Positions 19,176-35,259 of a stretch of DNA of 64,000 nt are shown here, piece by piece. The number at the start of each line of letters is the position of its first letter. Positions within the stretch are counted from its first letter, which is position 1. Location: assembly GCF_013315695.1 (NCBI RefSeq), contig NZ_CP054353.1, one strand, 5' to 3'. The notes beneath the pieces were generated by a model. That model searched no databases, was not told the DNA's origin, and saw nothing but the letters and a program-made list of their open reading frames with translations. The translations under genes were made by a program, and so were the position numbers. This DNA comes from Escherichia coli. Its GTDB lineage: Bacteria; Pseudomonadota; Gammaproteobacteria; Enterobacterales; Enterobacteriaceae.

Positions 19176-21155
19176 ATGAACATTTCGGAAGTCGATCTGC
19201 ATAAACTGACGGTCAGCGATCCGTTCCTCGGTCAGTACCAACAACTGGTCCGCGATGTGGTGATTCCTTATCAGTGGGACGCCTTGAACGATCGTATCCC
19301 AGAAGCGGAACCCAGCCATGCGATTGAAAACTTTCGCATTGCCGCAGGACTGCAAGACGGTGAATTTTACGGGATGGTGTTTCAGGACAGCGACGTCGCC
19401 AAATGGCTGGAAGCGGTAGCCTGGTCGCTGTGCCAGAAGCCGGACGCCGAACTGGAAAAAACCGCCGACGAGGTGATTGAACTGATCGCTTCCGCCCAGT
19501 GCGAAGATGGCTATCTCAATACTTACTTTACGGTAAAAGCGCCCGAAGAACGCTGGAGCAATCTGGCGGAGTGTCATGAACTTTACTGCGCCGGTCATCT
19601 GATTGAAGCCGGAGTCGCCTTCTTCCAGGCTACGGGCAAGCGGCGCTTGCTGGAAGTAGTTTGCCGTCTGACCGATCATATCGACAGCGTATTTGGTCCA
19701 GATGAAAGTAAGTTACACGGTTATCCTGGTCACCCGGAAATTGAACTGGCACTAATGCGCCTGTATGAAGTGACCGAAGAGCCGCGCTACCTGGCGTTGA
19801 CGAACTATTTTGTCGAACAGCGTGGTGCGCAACCGCACTATTACGACCAGGAATATGAAAAGCGCGGGCAGACCTCGCACTGGCACACCTACGGCCCGGC
19901 GTGGATGGTGAAAGATAAAGCCTACAGCCAGGCGCATTTGCCCATCGCACAGCAACAAACCGCCATCGGACATGCAGTACGCTTTGTATATCTGATGACT
20001 GGCGTCGCACATCTGGCGCGTTTAAGTCACGATGAAAGCAAGCGTCAGGATTGCCTGCGGCTGTGGAACAATATGGCCCAGCGTCAGTTATATATTACCG
20101 GCGGCATTGGCTCACAAAGCAGCGGCGAAGCGTTCAGCAGCGATTACGATCTGCCGAATGACACGGTTTACGCCGAAAGCTGTGCTTCCATCGGCCTGAT
20201 GATGTTCGCCCGGCGAATGCTGGAAATGGAAGGCGACAGTCAATATGCCGATGTGATGGAGCGCGCACTGTACAACACCGTGCTCGGCGGCATGGCGCTG
20301 GATGGCAAACATTTCTTCTATGTGAATCCGCTGGAAGTACATCCAAAATCGCTGAAATTCAACCATATCTACGATCACGTTAAGCCGATCCGCCAGCGTT
20401 GGTTTGGTTGCGCTTGTTGTCCGCCAAATATCGCCCGCGTGCTAACCTCGATTGGTCATTATCTCTACACGCCGCGTGAAGATGCGTTGTATATCAACAT
20501 CTACGCAGGAAACAGCATGGAAGTGCCGGTAGAAAATGGCACGTTGCGTCTGCGGGTTAGCGGAAACTATCCGTGGCAGGAACAGGTGACAATTGCGGTT
20601 GAATCGCCCCAGCCGGTGCGTCATACGCTGGCTTTACGTCTGCCGGACTGGTGCACACAGCCGCAGATCATATTGAATGGGGAAGAGGTCGAGCAGGATA
20701 TTCGTAAAGGGTATTTGCACATTACCCGCGAATGGCAGGAGGGCGACACGCTGAATCTAACTTTGCCAATGCCAGTACGTCGCGTTTACGGTAACCCGCT
20801 GGTGCGTCACGTCGCCGGAAAAGTGGCGATTCAGCGCGGCCCGCTGGTTTATTGCCTGGAACAGGCCGACAACGGCGAGTCACTGCATAACCTGTGGCTG
20901 CCCGCCGATGCGCCATTTACGACATTTGAAGGTAATGGATTGTTCCGCCATAAGATCTTAATCCAGGCACCGGGTTACCGGTATGAACAGAGCAATCCAG
21001 AGCAGCAACCGCTGTGGCATTACGACAGTGCGCCAGCCAAACGCCAGCCGCAAACTCTGACGTTTATCCCGTGGTTTAGCTGGGCTAACCGGGGTGAAGG
21101 CGAAATGCGGATCTGGGTGAATGAGGAAAAGCATTGCCATCCGGAGGTTGGATAA
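19176..21155 (+). CDS. glycoside hydrolase family 127 (DUF1680) protein, beta-L-arabinofuranosidase-like
   Basis: 659 aa from ATG at 19176 preceded by AAGGAG; contains the GCACCPPN cysteine-rich motif of GH127 enzymes; the six-frame ORF starts 48 bp earlier. Confidence 0.8.
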   Translation: MNISEVDLHKLTVSDPFLGQYQQLVRDVVIPYQWDALNDRIPEAEPSHAIENFRIAAGLQDGEFYGMVFQDSDVAKWLEAVAWSLCQKPDAELEKTADEVIELIASAQCEDGYLNTYFTVKAPEERWSNLAECHELYCAGHLIEAGVAFFQATGKRRLLEVVCRLTDHIDSVFGPDESKLHGYPGHPEIELALMRLYEVTEEPRYLALTNYFVEQRGAQPHYYDQEYEKRGQTSHWHTYGPAWMVKDKAYSQAHLPIAQQQTAIGHAVRFVYLMTGVAHLARLSHDESKRQDCLRLWNNMAQRQLYITGGIGSQSSGEAFSSDYDLPNDTVYAESCASIGLMMFARRMLEMEGDSQYADVMERALYNTVLGGMALDGKHFFYVNPLEVHPKSLKFNHIYDHVKPIRQRWFGCACCPPNIARVLTSIGHYLYTPREDALYINIYAGNSMEVPVENGTLRLRVSGNYPWQEQVTIAVESPQPVRHTLALRLPDWCTQPQIILNGEEVEQDIRKGYLHITREWQEGDTLNLTLPMPVRRVYGNPLVRHVAGKVAIQRGPLVYCLEQADNGESLHNLWLPADAPFTTFEGNGLFRHKILIQAPGYRYEQSNPEQQPLWHYDSAPAKRQPQTLTFIPWFSWANRGEGEMRIWVNEEKHCHPEVG

Positions 21156-21270
21156 GGCGCTCGCGCCGCATCCAACGTAGGGTGCACATTGCCTGATGCG
21201 ACGCTTAACACGTCTTATCAGGCCTACAAGTCGGTGCGAGAGCGTAGGCCAGCCGCACCGACATCCACCG
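21152..21270. repeat. REP/BIME palindromic units between the GH127 gene and yiaT
   Basis: Repeated GC-rich palindromes (gccgcatccaacgtagg, cctgatgcgacgc, cttatcaggcctac). Confidence 0.5.
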
Positions 21271-21275
21271 GTGAA

Positions 21276-22016
21276 TTAAAAACGCCAGCTCACGCCGGTG
21301 ACAAAGGTAAAACTCTCATTACGATCAACCATCGGGCTGTCGGTAATCTCTTCCGGCAGCTCGCTGTATCCGGCGCTCGCCATCAATACGACGTGCTCTC
21401 CTATCGGGTATTTTGCCGTCAGGCTGACATAGGGCACCCAGGCATCCTGCGCGGAATAACTTGCCAGACCGCTACGACGGGACTCACTCTCTGAAATGCC
21501 ATAGTAATAGTCACTGAAATTCTCGTCATAATAGAGAACGCCCAGCGCAGGTGTCAGCGACAGGCGACCTATCTGCATTTTGTGGAATACCGATAGCTCC
21601 CCCACCCAGCCGTTGCTGTTATCCAGAACGTCCGCAGCCGCAGAGGCTTTCACGGTTCCCCAACGCTCGTGGTGATACCAGGCAACCCCCGCCATAGCCG
21701 TACTATCACGCTTATCAAGCTGTTGCATGGCATAATCGTCATTATCGGCAGGGTCAAATTCCAGCGGCATCCAGGATGCGGTCAGGCTAAGTTCATTTTT
21801 TTCACTTTGCGACAGAATAAAACCTAACGTGGTCTGACGAACATAAAAAGTATCACCTTCATAACTAATCAGCGGAATTGCCTTTGTATTTTCATTATAA
21901 CCGCGATAAGGCGATTCATTATAAGCCGCACCAGCACCAATGGATAATTCAGAAGCAGTTGCACTTGCCATAAAAGGCAACGCAAATAACACCACAATAT
22001 TGCGGTTAATTAACAT
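21276..22016 (-). CDS. yiaT: MipA/OmpV-family outer membrane protein YiaT
   Basis: 246 aa with signal peptide and C-terminal aromatic residue (…VSWRF). Confidence 0.8.
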   Translation of the reverse strand: MLINRNIVVLFALPFMASATASELSIGAGAAYNESPYRGYNENTKAIPLISYEGDTFYVRQTTLGFILSQSEKNELSLTASWMPLEFDPADNDDYAMQQLDKRDSTAMAGVAWYHHERWGTVKASAAADVLDNSNGWVGELSVFHKMQIGRLSLTPALGVLYYDENFSDYYYGISESESRRSGLASYSAQDAWVPYVSLTAKYPIGEHVVLMASAGYSELPEEITDSPMVDRNESFTFVTGVSWRF

Positions 22017-22139
22017 GTCCGGTATTCCATTTTAAAATAAGATAAAAAAGAGTCGGCATAGTAATGCTTACAATTTCTCCGGTGCAAGATTCATATTTAT
22101 ATAGTAATATATAAAATTATATATAATTGGACTGTTGCG

Positions 22140-23114
22140 ATGACAAAATTACAACTTAAGTACCGGGAGTTAAAAATTATCTCGGTAATCGCTGCCAGTG
22201 AAAATATCAGCCATGCCGCGACTGTACTTGGCATCGCACAGGCCAACGTCAGCAAATATCTTGCTGATTTTGAATCAAAAGTGGGTTTAAAAGTCTTTGA
22301 CCGAACCACCCGACAGCTGATGCTCACACCTTTTGGCACCGTGCTGTTACCGTACATCAACGACATGCTGGACAGAAACGAGCAGCTTAATAATTTTATT
22401 GCAGATTATAAGCATGAGAAACGTGGTCGGGTCACTATCTATGCACCAACCGGCATAATTACCTATTTATCCAAACATGTAATCGATAAAATTAAAGATA
22501 TCGGTGATATCACCTTATCGCTAAAAACCTGCAATCTTGAGCGTAATGCCTTTTATGAAGGCGTCGAATTTCCCGATGATTGTGATGTTTTAATCAGCTA
22601 CGCCCAACCAAAAGATGAATCGCTGGTTGCCAGTTTTATTACCCAATATGCCGTAACCGCTTATGCCAGCCAGCGCTATCTTGGGAAACATCCCATTAGC
22701 CGTCCTGACGAACTCGAACATCACTCCTGTATTTTGATCGACTCGATGATGATCGACGACGCGAATATCTGGCGCTTCAACGTCGCCGGGAGTAAAGAGG
22801 TGCGGGATTATCGCGTGAAGGGAAATTACGTTTGCGACAACACGCAATCTGCGCTGGAGCTGGCACGAAATCACCTGGGGATTGTGTTTGCGCCAGACAA
22901 AAGTGTGCAGAGCGACCTGCAAGACGGCACGCTGGTGCCCTGCTTTCAGCACCCGTATGAATGGTGGCTGGATCTGGTGGCTATCTTCCGTAAACGGGAA
23001 TACCAGCCCTGGCGGGTCCAGTATGTGCTGGATGAAATGCTGCGTGAAATTCGCCACCAGCTTGCTCAGTCGCAGCAACTGCGGCCTGAACAAGCGGCGG
23101 AAAGCGAAGATTAA
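22140..23114 (+). CDS. yiaU: LysR-family transcriptional regulator YiaU
   Basis: 324 aa; N-terminal HTH and LysR substrate-binding domain. Confidence 0.85.
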
Positions 23115-24247
23115 TGATCGAGATAAAGGTAATGCACCCAGCTGGTCATGCGTAACAGTACTTTGCGCATCACCGAGACATGGCTGAAATGATCAGAGTA
23201 GACCGCCACCTGGGCGTAAATACCGTCTGGTAATGCGCTCAAATCAGTATGCTCATCCAGTTCAATGGTCGCGATAACGCCATCTGAACCCGGCTCTGTG
23301 TTTAACGTCTGTAAGGTGCCGGTCGACTGATAAGCTCCGCCGGGAACGGCTGGACTAATGGCTGCCAGCTTACCGCTGAATACCTTACCTGGCAGAGCAT
23401 TAAACACCACTTCCGCATCGTCGCCAGGAGCCAGTCGCAGCAAGGAGTTCTGACGGAACTGCGCCACGATTTGTCGTTTCTGATCGGGTATAAACACCAT
23501 CACCGGACGTAGCGGCAGCGACGCGGCATAGGTACCCGGACGAATCAGTACCTGGGTCACATAACCATCGCTCGGCGCACGCACTATCGTCTGCTCAAGG
23601 TTATATTTTGCTTCCGCGAGCTGCGCTTTCAGGCTGGCGATTTGAGAATGTTCACCCAACACCAGGCTATCCAGCTGGCTCTGGATCTGTTTTTGTTCCG
23701 CCGCCGCTGATTTTACGGAGGCTTCCTGCGCCAGATAATTTTGCCGCGCCACATCGATATCGCGTTCTGAAAACGGGTTTACTTTCGCCTGACTGCCGCG
23801 TGCGTAACGCTGATACTCTTTAGCGAATTTATCCCGCGTGGCCTTTGCCTGCTGAGTATTCGCCGCCATCTCATCTAACTCTGCGCCCAACGCCCGCTGT
23901 TTATGTTCTGCGGTAACGATATCCGCCATCAGCCGATCCACCCGCGCCTGATAACGCGTCGGGTCCAGTCGAAATAGCACCTCACCTTTTTTAATCAGCG
24001 TATTTTTCTTGTCCGTCACTTCGATCACCACGCCTGTCACCTGTGGGACAACAGGAATAGAAATAACCGCTTTTTGCGCTTTAAAGGTATACGGATGGTT
24101 ATAGTTCATTAACAGAATTAAACCGCTGACAATAAATATGCCACCCAGGGCCGCGGTGGGAATGGTCCATTTATTTACAGGAATTTTGAAGATCTTAAAC
24201 ATTGCCCATGCGAAAGCCACATAGGTCAAAATAATCAGTAAATCCAT
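23111..24247 (-). CDS. yiaV: HlyD-family membrane fusion protein YiaV
   Basis: 378 aa; N-terminal TM helix, coiled coil and beta-barrel sandwich; paralogous to yibH in this window. Confidence 0.85.
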
Positions 24248-24252
24248 AAGTA

Positions 24253-24576
24253 TTACTCGGCAGAAGAGGATTTGATGTCGGCGAGCTGTTTCTCCAGCCC
24301 GGCAATACGCTGTTGTAGTTGCACAACGGAGGAGTCATGGTTTTGCATTCCCCATCCCCGCTCCGGGCGGTAAAGCGTGGCCCAAATCCACAAAAATGGC
24401 CAGATAACATGCAGCGTAAAAAGACTCACCCAACCAGCAACATGAATGGCGTCGGCATGAGGATGATTACGTTTTTTAGCAATCAGGTAGGGAATATCAT
24501 GTAAAATAATAATCCCATAGAAGATCACCAGAAATACAAAAATAAGCACTCCCAGTGCAAAATAATCCAGGAACAT
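24253..24576 (-). CDS. yiaW: DUF3302-family inner membrane protein YiaW
   Basis: 107 aa from [11 protein letters not shown]; about 90% identical to yibI in this window. Confidence 0.8.
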
Positions 24577-24994
24577 ATTTCCCTCAGAGAATATAAAAAA
24601 GAACAATTAACGCATATTATGAAATACCATAATGCGGTGCAATTTCCTTATTTATATAACGACATATGGTTTTTTATATACTTTCTGAAGTGTGTGCCTG
24701 GCTTTTCAACAGGTCGAAGCTTATCATATTGAAATAATGTAACTATTGACCAAATTTATGAATAAAAACCGTAAAACATCCACAATGCAGATTAAGCGTA
24801 TTAAACCTTCAATTATCTACCGTTTATTGCTGATTGGCCTCGGAACGCCAATGGTGATTTATGGCCTGGTTCGCCCGCTCACCATCGAAACGCGAGATTA
24901 AACTCCTGGCAAAACACGCCCCAGAAACGCACTTCTGTTGGCGTAGTCTGGGTTATTGCGCACGTAGATTTAAAACGTAAATTGTAACAACGTG

Positions 24995-25095
24995 CGCTTT
25001 GTTTATGCCGGATGCGGCGTGTACGCCTTATCCGGCCTACGGTCAGGTCCCCGTAGGCATGATAAGACACGTAAGCGTCGCATCAGGCAATGAAT
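24995..25095. repeat. REP/BIME palindromic units downstream of aldB
   Basis: Canonical REP strings gccggatgcggcgtgtacgccttatccggcctacgg and gcgtcgcatcaggc. Confidence 0.55.
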
Positions 25096-25119
25096 ACCCA
25101 ATGCGACCAGCTTCTTATA

Positions 25120-26658
25120 TCAGAACAGCCCCAACGGTTTATCCGAGTAGCTCACCAGCAGGCACTTGGTTTGCTGGTAATGCTCAAGCATCATCTTATG
25201 GGTTTCGCGTCCGATGCCCGACTGTTTGTAGCCGCCAAACGCCGCATGTGCCGGGTAAGCGTGATAACAGTTGGTCCACACGCGCCCGGCCTGAATGCCG
25301 CGCCCCATCTTATAGGCCAGATTACCGTTGCGGCTCCAGACACCCGCGCCCAGGCCATATTGCGTGTCGTTCGCCAGCTCCAGCGCCTCGTCCATCGTTT
25401 TGAAGGTGGTTACCGCTAGCACCGGGCCAAAAATCTCCTCCTGGAACACGCGCATATTATTCTGACCAAACAGAATCGTCGGTTCGAGGTAGTAGCCGTC
25501 TTTCAGTTCGCCTTCCAGCAGCTTGCGCCGCCCGCCGGTGAGCACGTCTGCGCCCTCTTTTTTACCAATATCAATGTAGTTGAGGATGGTTTCCAGTTGC
25601 CCGTGAGAAACCTGCGCCCCCATTTGCGTCACGCTGTCGAGCGGGTTACCGCTACGAATGCTTTCGACACGGCGGATGGCGCGTTCCATAAAGCGTTCGT
25701 AGATAGACTCCTGCACTAAAGCACGGCTTGGACAGGTGCAAACTTCGCCCTGGTTAAAGGCAAACAGTGCAAAGCCTTCCAGCGCTTTATCGAAAAAGGC
25801 ATCTTCTTCATCCATCACATCAGCAAAGAAGATATTTGGCGACTTGCCGCCCAGTTCCAGGGTTACCGGAATAATATTTTGCGTGGCGTACTGCATAATT
25901 TGTTGGCCCACTTCCGTTGATCCGGTAAACGCCACTTTGGCGATGCGTTTCGAGGTCGCCAGATATTCGCCAATTTCCCCACCAGCGCCGTTAACCACGT
26001 TCACCACGCCCGGCGGCAGTAAATCACCGACGATTTCCATTAGCAGCAGTACAGAAAGCGGGGTAAGACGTGCGGGTTTCAGCACCACACAGTTGCCCGC
26101 CGCCAGCGCGGGAGCCATTTTCCAGCTCGCCATCAGCAGCGGGAAGTTCCACGGAATAATCTGCCCCACCACGCCTAACGGTTCGTGGAAGTGATAAGCC
26201 ACAGTTTCGCTATCCACTTCACTAATACCGCCTTCCTGCGCCCGAATACACGAGGCAAAATAGCGAAAATGGTCAATCGCCAGCGGCACATCAGCAGCAC
26301 TGGTTTCGCGAATGGGTTTGCCGTTATCCCAGGTTTCAGCGGTCGCTAACAGTTCGAGGTTCTGCTCCATCCGATCGGCAATCTTAAACAGAATCGCCGC
26401 GCGATCCTGCACCGAAGTATGCGCCCATTTATCTTTCACTTTGTGCGCAGCATCCAGCGCCAGATCGATGTCTCGTTTGCCCGAAGACGCCACTTCGCAC
26501 AGCAGCTGTCCGGTCACCGGCGTCAGGTTCTGGTAATACTCGCCGTCGGCAGGGGCTACCCATTCGCCGCCAATAAAGTTGTCGTAGCGGGCTTTTAACT
26601 TGAGGGGGAAACCATACTCGCCGGGCTTAATCTGTGCTGAAGGGGGATTATTGGTCAT
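25120..26658 (-). CDS. aldB: aldehyde dehydrogenase B
   Basis: 512 aa starting [15 protein letters not shown]; aldehyde dehydrogenase catalytic Cys/Glu motifs; the six-frame ORF is 30 codons longer upstream. Confidence 0.9.
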
Positions 26659-26765
26659 GATCGTCTCCTTGCGGTGTGAGGTATAACAAGGGTAGACGTG
26701 ACTGGCGAAATCTTCGCCAGTCGATAACAGCTTTACGACGGCTATCACGAATTTACGGGCAAGGG

Positions 26766-28061
26766 TTACAGCGGATAATGCGCGAAGTACACGGCTTGCT
26801 GGTCATTAATTTTCTTCTCTTGCGCAAACCCTTCTTTAACAATTGTCCGTAAATCAGCTCGAGCCGTATTATCAGAGACGCCCAGGCTCGCGCTAATTTC
26901 AGCAACTGTGTACTCTTTCCCCGGATTGGCGAGCATCACATTCAGGAGCGTTACCTGGCGCGGATTCAGGCGTTTAAGCACACCAGAGCTAAACAGCACA
27001 CTATCGAGTTTTGCGCTTCGTTGTGTAATTTCATCGATATGCTGCTGCCAGTTTTGCAGAGCACGTTTAATGACACCCGCCTGATATTCAAGGAAATAAG
27101 TCAGATCCATACCATCTGATTCAGTGTACTGGTAGCTGGCGGCATATTTGACCGGTGCAGCATGAAGCAAACGGCTGATGGAAATATATTTAAAGACATC
27201 GTAGCCCGATTTCAGCATATACCAGTAAAACAGCGCCCGACTGGTGCGCCCGTTGCCATCCCGAAACGGATGTTCATGGGCCAGCATAAAATGCAGAATG
27301 CAGGCACGGACCAACGGATGAATATACCCTTCATGGCTGTTTAACCACTGGCAAACTTTTTCCAGCCGTTCCGGTAACAATGCCGCAGCGGGCGGTTGAT
27401 GCACTATATTGCCATCATAGTCGGCGATCACAACATCATCTGTTTCACGAAATTCTCCCGGACGATATTTCGCGTCATTGATTCCACCCATACCAATGGC
27501 ATGTAACTGGCGAATAAGCGCAGGTGTCAGCGGTTCTGCGAGTAAGTGCGGAATTTCCGCCATCAGCCGGGCATTTCCCGCAATCATATGCTCGTCTTCA
27601 GTGCGTGGCGACCGCCCTGTTTCCAGCATTTTTCTCGCCACCAGCGTTGTAGTATTCGCACCTTCCAGCTGGGAGCTGGTGATCGGCTCTTCCAGGCGTA
27701 ACTGGCTTAACTCGGCTCCGGCCCCGCGTAACCGTTCAGTCTGATCTTTCAGCGCCAGCGCGGTAGCACGTTTGTCGACAAGCTCGCACGCTTCTGCAAT
27801 CACCGGGGTAATGTTGAATCCGGCCTGTTCACCCGCTTCATTGCAATAATTAATTCGTTGGATCGCCGCGTTGCGCGCCAGACGGGTAAGCGTCCACGCC
27901 ACATCGACGTTTTCTCCTTTTTTGATGCGGTACTGCAACTCATCAAAAGGCAGATAACGTCCTTTTTCATCGGTAACCCGGTTAAAGCGCAGGTGGGCCA
28001 GGAGTTCCTCACCCGATAAGTGTGATAAAGGAATAAGTCCGGGAGGTGATTTGATAGCCAT
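26766..28061 (-). CDS. Fic (AMPylase-type) family protein with N-terminal inhibitory motif and C-terminal winged-helix domain
   Basis: 431 aa; Fic active-site motif [15 protein letters not shown]-terminal SSQLEG matching the (S/T)xxxE(G/N) inhibitory-helix pattern; C-terminal HTH-like segment ([28 protein letters not shown]). Confidence 0.8.
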
Positions 28062-28064
28062 GTG

Positions 28065-28145
28065 CTTATCTCAAAAAAGCGCAATATTGAGATAGTGTAT
28101 AGCAGGAAAGAGAAACTATCTCAAAAAAAGCAAGTTTTGAGATAG
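28065..28145. promoter_or_regulatory. two ~30-bp palindromes (TATCTCAAAAAA…TTGAGATAG) immediately upstream of the Fic gene; candidate operator pair
   Basis: cttatctcaaaaaagcgcaatattgagatag at 28065-28095 and ctatctcaaaaaaagcaagttttgagatag at 28116-28145. Confidence 0.45.
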
Positions 28146-28190
28146 TTGAAAAAGCGGCTGACAACTCGCCAGCCGTTGTGGGAATGATGA

Positions 28191-29342
28191 TTACATTGCG
28201 GCGCGATAAATCGCCACAATTTCTTCGTGAGTTGCCTGGATCGGGTTAGTAAAGCCACAGGCATCTTTCAGGGCATTAGTCGCCAGTACCGCGAAATCTT
28301 CTTCTTTCACGTTCAGGTCACGCAGGCCTGCCGGGATATCCACTTTCTTCGCCAGTTCACGGATGGCGTTAATGCAGGCTTCAGCACCTTCCGCGTCGTT
28401 TTTACCAGTCACGTTCACGCCCATTGCAGCGGCACAGTCACGCAGACGTGCTGCAGCGACTTTGCTATTGAATACCTGAACGTGTGGCAGCAGAACAGCA
28501 TTACATACACCGTGTGGCAGGTTGTAGAAACCGCCCAGCTGGTGCGCCATCGCATGAACATAACCCAGAGAAGCATTATTGAACGCCATACCGGCGAGGA
28601 ACTGGGCATAAGCCATTGCTTCACGCGCTTTCGCATTACTGCCATCTTCAACGGCTAACGGCAGGTTTTCGGCAATCATGGTCACGGCTTTCAGTGCGCA
28701 AGCGTCAGTGATCGGCGTGGCGGCAATAGAAACATACGCTTCGATAGCGTGCGTTAAGGCATCCATACCCGTTGCGGCGGTCAGTGACTTCGGCATACCG
28801 ACCATCAGAGATGAGTCATTGACAGAAAGCAACGGAGTTACATGTTTATCAACAATCGCCATTTTGATATGACGCGCTTCGTCAGTGATGATGCAGAAAC
28901 GGGTCATTTCAGAGGCCGTACCCGCCGTGGTATTGATGGCGATCATCGGCAGCTGCGGTTTTGCAGAGCGGTCAACGCCTTCGTAATCGCGAATATCGCC
29001 GCCATTGGCTGCCACCAGCGCAATACCTTTTGCGCAGTCGTGCGGAGAACCACCGCCTAAGGAGATCACGCTATCGCAATTATTTTCTTTAAGTAATTTC
29101 AAACCTGCGGCGACGTTTTCCGTGGTGGGGTTAGGTTGGGTGCCATCATAAATAACGCTAAAAATATTGCGTTCTTCCAGTGCTTTTTGCACATCACCCG
29201 CCATACCCAATTTCGTTAACATATTGTCGGTGACAATTAAGGTACGGGTAAATCCATAATCTGCCATCATATTCATTGCATCATTCAATGAATCAGCACC
29301 AATAACATTCACGGAAGGAATAAAAAAGGTTGAAGCTGCCAT
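28191..29342 (-). CDS. yiaY: iron-containing alcohol dehydrogenase YiaY
   Basis: 383-aa Fe-ADH family protein. Confidence 0.85.
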
Positions 29343-29532
29343 AACACACTCCTGAAAGTGTAAAAAAGGGCGGGCAGCTTACTGAGAATTTTCATTTGAA
29401 AATATGATCAACATTACCGTTTATTAAAATATTTTTAATAAAAAGCACGTTACATTCATCAAATAACGTGCCTTCTTAACATTAATAAGAAATTTTGTAT
29501 TAATTCATATTTATTATGAATTAATCATTTCC

Positions 29533-31377
29533 TTATTTTTCCGGAAATAATAATGCGTCGCGTAATAAATGATCATTTCCACGACGACGCGTAAAGCCAA
29601 TGCGGTCAAAATATTCCAGAATCTGAATTGCCAGCTTTCGGCCTACGCCTAAGCGATCGCGGAAATCCGCCGCGCAGGTTGAACCACACTCCTGATCGAG
29701 ATCGCGGATCATATTAGCAAACTCGACAATCCGATCGTTACGGTAATAACGATCTTTAACGATCGCGGTAATTATCCCCTGCTGCGCCGCCTGGCGTAGA
29801 GTCAGGCGCATTGCCTGCTCGTCGGTTCCCGTCTCTTTTGCCAGGTCTCGCACCCACCACGGTTCGTCACCAAACAGTGGCTCTGCTTTTTGCCAGATGG
29901 CCTGCTGCTCTTCGCTGAAGCCCGCTTTGTGATCCGGCAGATGCAGCCAGCCGTGATGACTGAGGATGTCGCCGCTTTCGCGCATCTTTTCAATCAGCAA
30001 CAGTACCAGCGCTTCATCTTCCATTGGCAACGCCATACGTCGCAGACGTTCGCGCCCAGGACCAGGTTCATCGCGATGTTGCTCATGATAAGTCGCTAAT
30101 GTGTCGAGAATTTTCCGCTGCCAGCGGGCGGCAACCGGCGCATTCAACAAGCTATAACCAGCCTGAATATAGCCAGGCTGTTGCAGCAGTTCGCGCATCC
30201 CTTCGCCGTTGAGCTGGCGCGCCCAGGCGAAATCAGCAAGGTTAACCGCGCCGCGTTCCAGATGAACAGATAACGCATCGGCATCGCTCTGCGCCCGTGC
30301 AAGAGACGCCAGCCATTGCAGATATTCCGGCTTACGCTTACCGCGACGCGGCGGGTTAAGCATCACCACACGCGCCCCCGCCAGCGTGTTGCGGGCCGAG
30401 ATATCGCGCAGCACTATGCGATCGTTATCCGCCAGCCACAGCGGCGTGTCGAACACCAGCTCGGCAAGGTTATCTTCCAGCAGCGAAACGCGTCCCGTAA
30501 CGTGGCTGGCGGCGTGGTGAATATGCAGCGGCTGCCACTGGGTCAGCGGTGTATGGGTTTGAAGCTCAACTATCACCCGCGTAAACGGCTCCGGCGGCGC
30601 ATCGGCAAGCAACCAGTCGCCACGGTTAATCTGTTCTTTTTCCGCATCACCCGCGATGTTAAGCGCAATACGCTGCCCGGCATGAGCTGCATCTGTTGGC
30701 TGATTTTGCGCATGTAGCGCACGCACGCGCATCGGTTTATTTACACCAGTCAGCCAGATTGAATCGCCTACCTTCACTTCCCCGCTTAACGCCGTACCGG
30801 TGACGACCAGCCCGGCACCTTTTACGGTAAATGCGCGGTCGATCGCGAGGCGGAAACTATGTTGGCTGGCGTGTTCGCGTTCTGGTAACTGAAGCAGATG
30901 CTCGCGCAGGGCATCAATTCCCCGACCTTCGGTTGCTGCGGTGATAAACAGTTTTGCCTCAGCAAAACCGTATTCCCGCAGCACCTCCTTTACCTGGCGT
31001 TCAACCTCATCAACACGCGCTTCGTCCACGCGATCGGCTTTGGTCAGCGCCACTGTCAGCATCGGATTACCGGTCAGCTGCAAAATCGCCAGATGCTCAC
31101 GGGTCTGTGCCATCACGCCGTCATCGCACGCCACCACCAACAGCGCGTGATCGATACCACCAACGCCCGCCAGCATGTTGGAAAGAAACTTTTCATGACC
31201 GGGTACGTCGATAAAACCAGGCACGCGACCATCCGGCTGCGGCCAGTAGGCATAGCCGAGATCGATGGTCATGCCGCGCTTTTTTTCTTCCGGCAGACGG
31301 TCGGCATTTACGCCAGTAATCGCCTGCAATAAGGTTGTTTTGCCGTGGTCAACGTGTCCGGCAGTCGCAATAATCAT
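29533..31377 (-). CDS. selB: selenocysteine-specific elongation factor SelB
   Basis: 614 aa; N-terminal GTPase motifs (GHVDHGKT) and C-terminal winged-helix repeats. Confidence 0.9.
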
Positions 31378-32765
31378 TTCAACAACATCTCCAAAAACCG
31401 TTGCTCATCTTCAAGGCAGCGTAAATCCAGCCACAATCGTCCGTCATAAATACGACCAATCACCGGCACTGGCAATTCACGCCAGCGGGCGGCTAATGAC
31501 TCAAGGTGGCTACCGCGTCCATCATGGGGTGTAAACGTTAATGCCGCGCTCGGCAGGCGATCAACCGGCAGCGAACCACTGCCAATCTGCGAAAGACATG
31601 GCATAACCTGTACCGCAAACTCCGCGCCGTAATGTGCGGCAAGGGGAGCCTGTAAACGTTGTGCCTGGATTTGAATGACCTCTGCGCTGCGGGTAAGCAG
31701 GCGCAGGGTCGGTAATTTTTCACTCAGCGCCTCAGGGTGTAAATAAAGACGCAGCGTGGCTTCCAGCGCCGCGAGGGTCATTTTATCCGCGCGTAATGCA
31801 CGCTTCAGTGGATGGCTTTGCAGGCGGGCGATCATCTCTTTTTTACCAACAATAATTCCTGCCTGCGGCCCGCCTAACAACTTGTCGCCGGAGAAGCTCA
31901 CCAGACTGACGCCCGCCGCAATCAACTCCTGCGGCATTGGCTCTTTCGGCAAACCGTACTGGCTAAGATCGACCAGCGAGCCACTGCCTAAATCAGTCAC
32001 TACGGGGACATCCAGCTCTTTGCCGAGCGCCACCAGTTCCGCTTCATCTATCGCTTTGGTGAATCCCTGAATGCTGTAGTTACTGGTATGTACTTTCATC
32101 AACAGCGCGGTATTTTCATTCACCGCCTGACGATAATCATTAGCGTGCGTGCGGTTGGTGGTCCCTACTTCGTGTAGTGTGCAGCCTGCCTGACGCATAA
32201 CATCAGGAATACGAAACGCGCCGCCAATCTCCACCAGTTCGCCGCGAGAAACCACCACCTCTTTCCCGCTGGCAGTGGCCGCCAACATCAATAACACCGC
32301 CGCCGCATTGTTATTAACGATACAGGCATCTTCCGCCCCCGTAATACGGCACAGCAGCTGCGCCAGCGCACGATCGCGATGTCCGCGTCCGGCGTCGTCC
32401 AGATCGTACTCGAGGGTCACTGGCGAACGCATAGCCTGCGCAACGGCTTCCACCGCGGCTTCTGCCTGTAAAGCTCGCCCAAGATTGGTATGCAGCACGG
32501 TTCCCGTCAGGTTGATCACCGGACGCAGCGCGCTCTGCGCCTCCTTCGTCAGTCGGGCATCGACTTCTTGCGCCCAGTTTTCACACCATGCGGGCAGCGT
32601 CTGGCTATCACGAATCACTTCTCGCGCTTCGTCAAGCATCTGACGCAGCAATTCCACCACGCGGGTGTGACCATAAGTATCACGCAAAGAAAGGAAGGAG
32701 CTATCGCGCAATAAGCGATCAATAGCCGGAAGTTGACTATAGAGGGAACGCGTTTCGGTTGTCAT
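31374..32765 (-). CDS. selA: L-seryl-tRNA(Sec) selenium transferase SelA
   Basis: 463-aa PLP enzyme; 4-bp overlap with selB. Confidence 0.9.
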
Positions 32766-32862
32766 AGGAAACCTGGCTGATCAAGGCCCTCTCACACGGA
32801 GAAGGGCGTTTAACATAACCACGGATTGTAACGTGAGATGGGTCAGGAGGACATATCGCGCA

Positions 32863-33471
32863 TCAAGCCTTTGGCGGTTCGGTGCGGGCGAAACTTTCGC
32901 GGCTAAAGAGGTTTTCGACCAGTTTGACTAAGTGTGGGCGGTCGACACACCAGCCTGGCGCAACGCGGCGGAAATTGAGATATCCGACGGCACAGGCAAT
33001 GGCGATAGTCGCCAGATTGACCGTATCGGTTTTGAGCGTGCCATCGACCAGATATCCTTCCAGCACATCCAGACTGCGGTTGATTTTCTCCCGCTGGCGT
33101 AACAATTCATCTTCAGACTGCTGCGCCGCCGGACGCGCCTGTTCACGCACCGATACCAGCCCGGCATCCATAATGCCATCCGCCAGCGCCTCAATTTTGC
33201 GCACCCGCAACGACTCCAGCGGATCACGCGGCAACATCGCCGGAGCGACATTCATTAATTCAATATATTCAGCGATGATCGGCGAATCAAACCAACATTC
33301 GCCCTCTTCGGTCACCAGCACCGGCACTTTCCCTAACGGGTTAAATTGCGCCACGCCGTTGTCCGCGTTATAGGGCAGTTCATTAATAAATTCGAAAGTT
33401 ATGCCCTTTTCTAACAACAGAATAGAAAGTTTGCGTACAAACGGGCTGGTGTAGCTACCGACGAGTTTCAT
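32863..33471 (-). CDS. yibF: glutathione S-transferase-like protein YibF
   Basis: 202-aa GST fold. Confidence 0.85.
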
Positions 33472-33541
33472 GCCGAGTCCTTTGTGCGAGGAAAAATATC
33501 AGTATGGCTCAGGCTCGCGCAAAACACAGGTGATACAAGTC

Positions 33542-34678
33542 TCAATGATCCAAATAAAGATAATGCATCCAACTGGTCATTCTCAGCAGCACCTTCCGCA
33601 TCACCGAAACATGGCTGAAATGGTCGGAGTAAACTGCCACCTGGGCGTAGATGCCGTCGGGTAAAGCATCGATATCATCGTTGGGGTCCAGTTCAATGGT
33701 TCCCAGCACACCGTCCGTGCCGGGCACGACCGTTAATGATTGCAATACCCCTTGCGCCTGATACGAACCGCCTGGCACGACAGGTAAAATACTAGTCAGT
33801 TTGCCGTGGAACACCTGCCCAGGTAGCGCGTTAAACACCACTTCCGCATCATCGCCGGGTTTCAGACGTAACAGCGAGTTCTGCCGAAATTGGGCGACAA
33901 TTTGCCGTTTTTGCTCGGGGATGAAAACCATCACCGGACGTAGCGGCAAGGCAGCTGCGTATGTACCTGGGCGGATCAGTACCTGAGTAACGTAGCCATT
34001 GCTTGGTGCGCGAATGACAGTCTGCTCAAGGTTATATTTTGCTTCAGTAAGTTGCGCTCTTAAGCTCACAATCTGCGATTGCTCGCCGTTAACCATACTG
34101 TCGAGCTGGCTCTGGATCTGCGCCTGCTCCGCCACCGAGCCTTTCACCAGCGCGTCCTGCGCGAGGAAGTTTTGCCGCGCATCGTCGATGTCACGTTCCG
34201 AGAACGGATTCACCGCCGCCTGGCTGCCTTTCAGGTAACGTTGATAATTTTTAAACAGACGGTCGCGCTCCGCTGAAACCTGGGTGGTGTTGGCCTGCGC
34301 TTCAGTGAGCTGCGCGCGCAGCGTCTTTATATTATGCGTCGCCGTCATCAGGTCAGCCTGAAGTCTGTCAACTCGCGCCTGGTAACGAACCGGGTCGAGC
34401 TTAAAAAGCACCTCGCCCTTTTGAATAAGCTGATTATTTTTGTCGGTGACTTCAGTAACAATTCCCGTCACCTGTGGCGTGATGGGGATCGCTATCACTG
34501 CCTTTTGCGCGGTAAAAGTGTAAGGGTGGTTGTAGTTCATCAACAAAATCAAACCACTCACCAGAAACACGCCTCCCAGCGCCGCCGTCGCCAGCGTCCA
34601 CTGATTTACCGGAATGCGGAAGATTTTAAAGACCGCCCACGCCAGCGCCACGTAAGTTAAAACAATCAATAGATCCAT
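33542..34678 (-). CDS. yibH: HlyD-family membrane fusion protein YibH
   Basis: 378 aa; paralogue of yiaV, same length. Confidence 0.85.
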
Positions 34679-34680
34679 AT

Positions 34681-35043
34681 TTAGATCTCCGGGAACGTGG
34701 AATAGTCAGTCTTTTTCTCGGCGGCGAGTTGATGCTCCAGCCGGGAAATTCGGTCAGAAAGTGCGGCGATTTCCGGGTCTGGCACGTCGCCTTGCGGCGC
34801 AACATGTGACTGCATGCCCCAGCCGCGCTCCGGTTGATAGAGCGTCGCCCAGATCCACAGGAACGGCCAGATAACATGCAGAGTAAACAGGCTCACCCAG
34901 CCCGCCGTATGAATAGCGTCGGCATGGGGATGGTTGCGCTTTTTGGCAATCAGATAAGGGATGTCATGTATCGCGATGATTCCATAAAAAATCACCAGAA
35001 AGACGAAGATCAGCACTCCCAACGCGAAATAGTTTAGAAACAT
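34681..35043 (-). CDS. yibI: DUF3302-family inner membrane protein YibI
   Basis: 120 aa; paralogue of yiaW. Confidence 0.85.
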
Positions 35044-35259
35044 ATCTGCCTCGGATTCACGTTTATCAGTGTTGTTTTTTGGCTGGCAGCCAGAAGGGAG
35101 TCAGGCTGATATTTTGACAATAATCCGGGTTCGCGATTCTCGCCATAACACCAAAGAATAATTTTAAGAGGTGATGAGTTGCTTAGTTACATAACGATTT
35201 TATGACGAAGGCATAACATGCTGCAGATCACATCAGGTGAACGCTGTAAGAAAATATCT

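Follow-up and report, generated by a model that had tools for sequence, protein, structure and literature searches.

Two similar gene pairs lie close together in an Escherichia coli chromosome, and the locus raises the question of whether they act as repeats that endanger the genes between them and, if they do not, of what their products do. The window, a 64-kb stretch of that chromosome, carries the pairs as yiaW-yiaV and yibI-yibH, each encoding a small membrane protein of the DUF3302 family followed by a periplasmic adaptor (Table 1). An earlier note on this DNA had presented them as near-identical modules, and thus as repeats through which RecA could delete or duplicate the segment with the selenocysteine genes selA and selB. 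Our results favor a different account. The modules are best explained as two ancient, diverged operons whose products, on balance, probably form an envelope conduit that docks on TolC, with the DUF3302 protein as the dedicated inner-membrane partner of the adaptor.

The layout described in the earlier note is correct. Open reading frames (ORFs) reproduce exactly its coordinates, strand and lengths for all four genes, and Pfam confirms its family assignments, HlyD-type (CusB_dom_1/HlyD_D23/HlyD_3) for the 378-residue pair and DUF3302 for the small pair. The modules do bracket aldB, the Fic gene, yiaY, selAB and yibF, as seen in the ORFs and in the RefSeq annotation of locus L001, which lists the same set of genes. 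Each module spans about 1.5 kb, and they are paralogous, share one orientation and lie 10.4 kb apart, as the note had it (about 10 kb). Within them, the stop codon of yiaW lies 5 nt ahead of the yiaV start, and that of yibI 2 nt ahead of the yibH start.

At the protein level the likeness is clear. YiaV and YibH are identical at 291 of 378 positions (77%) in a gap-free alignment (BLASTP E = 0.0), while YiaW and YibI agree at 74 of their first 80 residues (BLASTP E 2e-61); the resulting 92% bears out the roughly 90% previously claimed for this shared region. Beyond residue 80 the tails diverge via substitutions and indels. Judged by these alignments, both pairs are paralogous far beyond chance. 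The DNA is a different matter, and the description as near-identical does not hold: yiaV and yibH are 69.7% identical (43% at third codon positions), the first 240 nt of yiaW and yibI 77.5%, and the whole modules 70.2% over 1,466 aligned nt. Synonymous change has reached saturation (proportion of synonymous differences, pS, 0.77 and 0.82), and a search for gene conversion as locally lowered synonymous divergence returned nothing, with pS at 0.66-0.93 in every 40-codon window. Non-synonymous divergence is low (0.18 and 0.06), from which we conclude that both copies are under purifying selection. The flanks of the two modules are unrelated (32-43% identity). Taken together, the alignments show that yiaW-yiaV and yibI-yibH are paralogous operons of ancient origin that have diverged strongly.

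A scan of one genome per species, which yielded 71 loci, places the two modules in a wider frame. The two-module layout is syntenic in Escherichia, Citrobacter and Pseudocitrobacter, with the same orientation and a separation of 8-17 kb. Enterobacter, Leclercia, Lelliottia and Huaxiibacter carry yibIH together with aldB-yiaU-yiaT, without yiaWV; the Klebsiella, Raoultella and Kluyvera loci have yibIH only; and Serratia, Yersinia, Rahnella, Pantoea, Budvicia and Buttiauxella have a single module at another location. E. coli YibH is about 90% identical to that of Raoultella, against 77% to its own paralogue YiaV. In a neighbor-joining tree the YiaV clade falls outside a group made up of all YibH orthologues and of single copies from other Enterobacterales families; the tree is midpoint-rooted and cannot separate an old split from fast evolution of YiaV. 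Either the split would predate that radiation of the Enterobacterales, with later losses of yiaWV in several lineages, or YiaV would have evolved faster after a later duplication. Under both scenarios the direct-repeat arrangement is stable across genera, and its shared synteny indicates that the modules have coexisted at least since Escherichia, Citrobacter and Pseudocitrobacter separated. Serratia also holds a deep-branching second paralogue (L055, 9289-11494; L071; L058), 59-60% identical to both YiaV and YibH, whose operon also contains a DUF3313 gene, 40 nt ahead of it. Ahead of the DUF3313 gene stand LysR and MipA-like genes in L071 and a LysR gene in L055, an echo of the yiaT-yiaU neighborhood.

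What, then, do these operons encode? Pfam finds CusB_dom_1, HlyD_D23, HlyD_3 and Biotin_lipoyl_2 domains in the adaptors, and NCBIfam gives only partial matches, the best of them to MdtN, EmrA/EmrK and AaeA, at 54-113 bits against cut-offs of 376-563 bits. Such scores mark YiaV and YibH as relatives of the EmrA, MdtN and AaeA equivalogs and not as members of them. We modelled a fusion of YibI, a Gly-Ser linker and YibH with AlphaFold2, using an alignment of 30 genome-paired sequences, and drew on the model for secondary structure and a fold search only. Its mean predicted local distance difference test (pLDDT) score was 77.6, and most of the adaptor part scored 80-95. In the model, YibH begins with helices at 1-19 and 26-50, followed by the beta strands of a lipoyl domain, a hairpin of about 56 residues (helices 97-152 and 161-192/201-218), a beta-barrel containing a loop of low confidence (301-320) and, last, a C-terminal helix at 355-374. 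No membrane-proximal domain was seen in it, only the C-terminal helix lying beyond the barrel. The charge distribution around the two membrane helices of YibH puts the loop between them inside.

The best Foldseek match of the model was EmrA of EmrAB-TolC (8zal/8zar; E 2e-19, target template modelling score 0.70), followed by MacA, AcrA and MexA, and the top 50 matches were nearly all periplasmic adaptors. A phmmer search of PDB sequences likewise returned EmrA, at 1.7e-11. In the 2025 cryo-EM structures of EmrAB-TolC (PMC13139468), EmrA is anchored by a single N-terminal membrane helix and is otherwise made up of a hairpin, a lipoyl domain, a beta-barrel bearing a long loop, and a C-terminal helix; it is without a membrane-proximal domain and forms a hexameric tube that meets TolC tip-to-tip. 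EmrA is thus the closest match in both sequence and fold, with the membrane anchor, lipoyl domain, hairpin, looped barrel and C-terminal helix in common, and by their domains and predicted N-terminal anchor YiaV and YibH are adaptors of the HlyD/membrane-fusion type, in an EmrA-like subgroup. The differences are nevertheless plain. YibH and YiaV are only about 19% identical to EmrA, score far under the NCBIfam EmrA cut-offs, have two predicted N-terminal membrane helices rather than one, and are encoded by genes always preceded by a DUF3302 gene and without an adjoining gene for a transporter of the major facilitator superfamily (MFS). In the window, indeed, no inner-membrane transporter gene adjoins either module, in agreement with the earlier note, which had found neither a pump nor an outer-membrane gene next to them.

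The partner protein is small and highly constrained. YiaW and YibI match PF11742 at 147 and 140 bits (cut-off 32), in a family of some 800 clusters at 50% identity. DUF3302 is a two-helix membrane protein with a strikingly conserved core and a variable tail, the latter holding a short heptad-like LxxRxxxLExxL segment. Nine core positions are invariant in 35 diverse members (P29, A33, H38, P39, A43, S51, W59, P60 and W65), and the core motif reads R-x-H-P...W-P-F-L-W-I-W. Weak matches to rhodopsin membrane helices in a PDB profile search were set aside as composition bias. Some DUF3302 proteins (P0339, P0352, P0292) terminate with the motif of the adaptor's C-terminal helix (as in ...LRKARLRMSSWMNYVFLEH) and look as if the adaptor body had been lost in frame.

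Word-indexed protein searches yielded only close enterobacterial relatives, and we therefore used an exhaustive representative search together with two collection scans. The pooled set of genome loci, 80 metagenome loci and individual look-ups comprised 153 DUF3302 genes, 143 of them with readable downstream sequence. A same-strand adaptor gene lies directly 3' of the DUF3302 gene in 138 of these 143 loci, distant genomes included, at a median gap of 2 nt; the five remaining cases are mostly artefacts of a crude ORF caller or of contig ends. DUF3302 and the adaptor are therefore an almost inseparable pair across the Proteobacteria.

Neighboring genes outside the enterobacterial synteny were clustered by BLAST, and Pfam was then run on about 20 of those on the same strand that lay closest or recurred. 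The most frequent operonic partner was an OEP/TolC-family gene, which six metagenomic loci have at a distance of 11-15 nt from the module, upstream in two (L078, L079) and downstream in four (L083, L093, L127, L128). Its identity was confirmed by Pfam in L078 and L083 (in one of them also via a precomputed hit) and assigned by BLAST clustering in the other four. Weaker recurrence was seen for a DUF3313 gene upstream of the module in Serratia and Biostraticola, a SulP transporter gene downstream in L116, where the module is intact, and in L163/L164, and a DUF3300 gene in L110 and L163. In L163 (5001-7070) and L164 the gene is such a fusion of DUF3302 with the end of the adaptor, and it is followed by the SulP transporter (Sulfate_transp and STAS domains), with DUF3300 and DUF2950 genes adjoining. 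No pump gene of the resistance-nodulation-division (RND), ATP-binding cassette (ABC), MFS or FUSC type occurred among the roughly 20 scanned neighbors or in the precomputed annotations of the look-ups. Two further groups of candidate partners were rejected: an energy-coupling factor (ECF)/ABC importer downstream of the Vibrio modules, which lies 255-285 nt away and is an uptake system, and a thiamine pyrophosphate enzyme, a cyclase-PilZ protein, a helicase, a transketolase and other single-locus neighbors, none of which recurred.

These observations suggest how the module might work. The DUF3302 protein and the adaptor would form an obligate inner-membrane and periplasmic pair; a hexamer of the adaptor would dock tip-to-tip on TolC or, in some other bacteria, on an operon-encoded TolC-family protein, as the operonic OEP/TolC-family genes of the six metagenomic loci suggest; and the result would be an envelope-spanning export conduit in which DUF3302 takes the place of the canonical RND, ABC or MFS pump as inner-membrane partner. 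In E. coli the outer component would be TolC itself, encoded elsewhere, as it is for AcrAB, EmrAB and MacAB.

Several points weigh against this account. Firstly, we infer both the binding of YibI to YibH and the need for TolC. Secondly, the positive-inside rule leaves the topology of DUF3302 ambiguous (the loop has a mean K+R of 2.6, the stretch behind the second helix one of 2.9), a transporter would be expected to have more than two membrane helices, and neither a PDB profile search nor a literature search turned up a solved or annotated relative, the latter finding essentially no literature on the family. Thirdly, a pump may be encoded elsewhere, our scan of neighbors covered a subset only, and genes for SulP transporters come after the module in two contexts that are not related to each other (L116; L163/L164). 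Lastly, an IS1 insertion in yiaW that arose in macrophage adaptation had no phenotype alone, and yibH has been used as a neutral integration site, without comment.

The most serious competitor, which we regard as possible but doubtful, holds that DUF3302 is an accessory or regulatory protein in the manner of AaeX, AcrZ or YajC, and that the adaptor serves an MFS, FUSC or SulP transporter encoded elsewhere, so that a conventional tripartite pump would have one of its halves encoded here. In the family searches YiaV and YibH came closest, though only in part, to MdtN, EmrA/EmrK and AaeA, all of which serve pumps of the FUSC and MFS types as adaptors, and a gene for a small two-helix membrane protein directly upstream of an adaptor gene is the established layout of aaeX-aaeA and is shared by aaeXAB and mdtNOP. 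The SulP genes just mentioned point the same way, as does the improbability of a two-helix protein being a transporter; indeed, possession of only two membrane helices is what favors reading DUF3302 as an accessory to a transporter encoded elsewhere. Adaptor genes usually adjoin those of their pumps, however, and no RND, ABC, MFS or FUSC gene stood among the checked neighbors within the 138 intact modules; unlike aaeXAB and mdtNOP, the modules here have no adjacent FUSC pump gene. DUF3302 is also not detectably homologous to AaeX (DUF1656), a relationship that we tried and rejected at an hhalign probability of 0.1%, with an AaeX sequence entered by hand, and nine invariant positions in 35 sequences are more than would be expected of a dispensable accessory.

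Extreme conservation and the lack of a co-located pump are, conversely, what favor DUF3302 as the inner-membrane passage of the TolC-docking conduit. In the strongest form of that proposal, which we think unlikely as it stands, an oligomer of DUF3302, the EmrA-like adaptor and TolC or a TolC-family protein would make up a self-contained tripartite conduit without any canonical pump. If true, TolC-dependent export would include a minimal class of system, hitherto undescribed and widespread in the Proteobacteria. The choice between YibI-YibH-TolC as a pump-less or minimal conduit and an adaptor that borrows a transporter encoded elsewhere is thus a concrete hypothesis, and it is here that the residual interest of the locus lies: in the tight pairing of DUF3302 with the adaptor, the occasional TolC-family gene, the EmrA-like fold and the absence of a pump gene alongside the modules surveyed. 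It involves four uncharacterised genes of the best-studied bacterium.

A further alternative arises from the regulation of the modules and their reported phenotypes. A 22-nt element, TATATAAATAWGNNNNTTGCAC, has exactly two matches in the window, against none expected, and these lie in the promoter regions of yiaW and yiaT in the same orientation relative to each gene. Citrobacter and Pseudocitrobacter keep the element ahead of both genes, and Enterobacter keeps it ahead of yiaT. TTGCAC within the yiaW copy could serve as a -35 hexamer, and the element is possibly a site for the LysR-type regulator YiaU that overlaps it. The yiaT gene has been reported as a YiaU target, and YiaU affects lipopolysaccharide (LPS)-core genes (10.1101/2021.12.22.473864); the shared element and that report place yiaWV, probably, in the same regulon as yiaT under YiaU. 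The yiaU and yiaV genes are, in addition, convergent, with 3' ends that overlap by 4 nt (23111-23114), and the pair is among RNA-seq-supported excludons (PMC12288877). At the other module, the predicted CRP sites of the divergent intergenic region could act on yibI as well as on mtlA. The two copies would thus have diverged in regulation, yibIH sharing a CRP-rich region with mtlA and yiaWV carrying a yiaT-type promoter element. Old, differently regulated paralogues of envelope-export systems in one chromosome are established knowledge from emrAB/emrKY and acrAB/acrEF; those systems, unlike the present ones, include pumps with known substrates, and here just 10 kb separates the two modules, one being accessory.

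Among reported phenotypes, yibI is induced in urine in uropathogenic E. coli (UPEC), and its deletion lowers both fitness in urine (competitive index 0.33) and adhesion (PMC5404293). A yibH knockout was among the most ornidazole-sensitive strains, beside mdtN, acrB and tolQR, and deletion of yiaW raised chemical transformability. Support for the function of the module from such phenotypes is weak. In a 2024 y-ome survey, yibH and yibI still figure among the uncharacterised genes, consistent with the earlier note, which had called the function of the module unknown.

It might be argued from these data that the modules are periplasmic scaffolds or envelope-stress factors with no part in transport, yiaWV for instance acting with the MipA-family protein YiaT under YiaU control. 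The promoter element common to yiaT and yiaW, the effect of YiaU on LPS-core genes and yiaT, the MipA-like and LysR genes near the deep Serratia paralogue in L071, and phenotypes of adhesion and transformability would all suit such a role. Yet the adaptors have the full architecture of an EmrA-type tube, long hairpin included, a TolC-family gene is the most frequent operonic partner elsewhere, yibIH has no MipA or LysR neighbor, and Enterobacter retains yiaU-yiaT without yiaWV. We consider the scaffold proposal quite improbable.

There remains the matter of recombination. Recombination through RecA/RecBCD in E. coli reportedly starts at a perfect match of about 23-27 nt, a figure said to come from Shen and Huang (1986) and Rayssiguier et al. 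(1989). Its rate climbs with the length of uninterrupted homology, and mismatch repair cuts it by orders of magnitude at 15-20% divergence. The module alignment (23111-24576 against 33542-35043) is split into 294 perfect runs that average 3.5 nt; the four longest measure 26, 22, 20 and 17 nt. Only the first of these falls within the minimal segment, all the others being shorter than 23 nt, and a length of 27 nt is never reached. This 26-nt run (23589-23614 and 34020-34045) encodes a conserved peptide. With 30% divergence and a single run of that length, the modules lie outside the recombinogenic range, their identity being too low and too interrupted, which is what the earlier note had named as grounds for refuting its reading, and on these alignments the two copies are too different in DNA for a meaningful recombination rate and the intervening genes are not endangered. 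Like the modules, rrn operons, insertion sequence (IS) copies and Rhs elements are same-orientation repeated DNA of about 1 kb. Those repeats are close to identical over kilobases, unlike the modules, with their 70% identity and maximum match of 26 nt.

Natural populations tell the same story. Searched with a 3.2-kb selAB probe, 5,425 of the 5,426 complete genomes of E. coli contain a full copy; the probe found 5,426 places in all, with two in one genome record. The single genome without selAB may be DGF-298, an engineered reduced-genome strain from which the region was deleted by design. By this count over 5,426 complete genomes there is no sign in natural populations of alleles in which the interval is deleted or duplicated. 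The yibHI module is present in 5,406 of these genomes and yiaVW in only 3,800; yibIH is thus core in E. coli, and yiaWV is part of a variable (accessory) yiaT-U-V-W block. In strain AR_0089 the whole yiaT-yiaW block is absent and an AraC/MFS/GH127 cluster abuts aldB, with aldB to yibI intact. That cluster is present at a coverage of at least 80% in 2,312 genomes, so that cluster and block are not simple alternatives. Strain CFSAN064036 has IS1B at the truncated end of yiaW, and ECCHD184 has ISKpn26 at a truncated yibI; these two module losses, the ones that we inspected, are IS-mediated, and all three strains retain selAB. That RecA would use the modules as direct repeats to delete or duplicate the 10-kb selAB interval, a proposal for which their shared orientation, spacing, length and lone 26-nt match speak, is extremely unlikely in light of their 70% identity and short perfect runs, saturated synonymous sites without a conversion tract, the known demands of recombination and mismatch repair, the near-universal retention of selAB, the IS-mediated losses and the layout conserved across genera. 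These repeats pose no risk to the selenocysteine genes, and the finding as first posed is an ordinary one without consequence, concerning four long-annotated but uncharacterised E. coli y-genes.

Table 1. Features of the window, with positions counted from its first nucleotide.
Feature	Position	Strand	Description and basis
yiaT	21276-22016	-	MipA-family outer-membrane protein; Pfam MipA E 1.5e-52; in variable yiaT-U-V-W block
Promoter-region element, second copy, TATATAAATATGAATCTTGCAC	22082-22103	-	About 64 nt upstream of yiaT ATG, in yiaT-yiaU divergent region
yiaU	22140-23114	+	LysR-type regulator; Pfam HTH_1 and LysR_substrate
yiaV	23111-24247	-	378-aa EmrA-like periplasmic adaptor, two predicted N-terminal membrane helices; ORF, Pfam CusB_dom_1/HlyD_D23/HlyD_3
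yiaW	24253-24576	-	DUF3302 inner-membrane protein, 107 aa from ATG; Pfam PF11742 E 1.8e-43
Promoter-region element TATATAAATAAGGAAATTGCAC	24637-24658	-	About 60 nt upstream of yiaW ATG
aldB	25120-26658	-	Between modules; ORF
Fic gene	26766-28061	-	Between modules; ORF
yiaY	28191-29342	-	Between modules; ORF
selB	29533-31377	-	Between modules; ORF
selA	31374-32765	-	Between modules; ORF
yibF	32863-33471	-	Between modules; ORF
yibH	33542-34678	-	378-aa EmrA-like periplasmic adaptor, core-genome paralogue; ORF, Pfam
yibI	34681-35043	-	120-aa DUF3302 inner-membrane protein; Pfam PF11742 E 2.7e-41
Four predicted CRP-type sites	35260-35436		TGTGA-N6-TCACA with 0-1 mismatch; yibI-mtlA divergent intergenic region

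The surrounding 14.5 kb (22000-36500) matches strain MSB1_4I at 100% identity and nearly all other complete genomes at 95-99%. Within the interval, the Fic gene matches the PADLOC anti-phage model SoFic (E 1.2e-43), with a C-terminal helix-turn-helix (HTH), and is found in only 1,575 of the 5,426 E. coli genomes, making it a candidate single-gene defence insert, variable within an otherwise conserved interval. It is the sole PADLOC match there, and YiaV, YiaW, YibH and YibI match no defence model. The spacing between yibF and yibH is 70 nt in the window (33472-33541); this is where K-12, like many further strains, carries an inserted Rhs element (rhsA, yibA, yibJ, yibG), and it is this element, rather than the yia and yib modules, that is the true repeat-family DNA of the region.

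Three minor features complete the picture. Divergent from yiaW lies a 47-codon ORF (24758-24901, plus strand), MNKNRKTSTMQIKRIKPSIIYRLLLIGLGTPMVIYGLVRPLTIETRD, with one hydrophobic segment; the RefSeq record of CFSAN064036 has a hypothetical 47-codon coding sequence at the corresponding place between IS1B and aldB, matched by position only. An Rfam scan returned no match inside either module. Repetitive extragenic palindromic (REP)-like palindromes occur downstream of aldB, and an Rfam match to naRNA4 (CssrE), a REP-derived nucleoid-associated RNA family, lies just downstream of yiaT (21146-21224, plus strand; 68 bits against a gathering score of 59.5).

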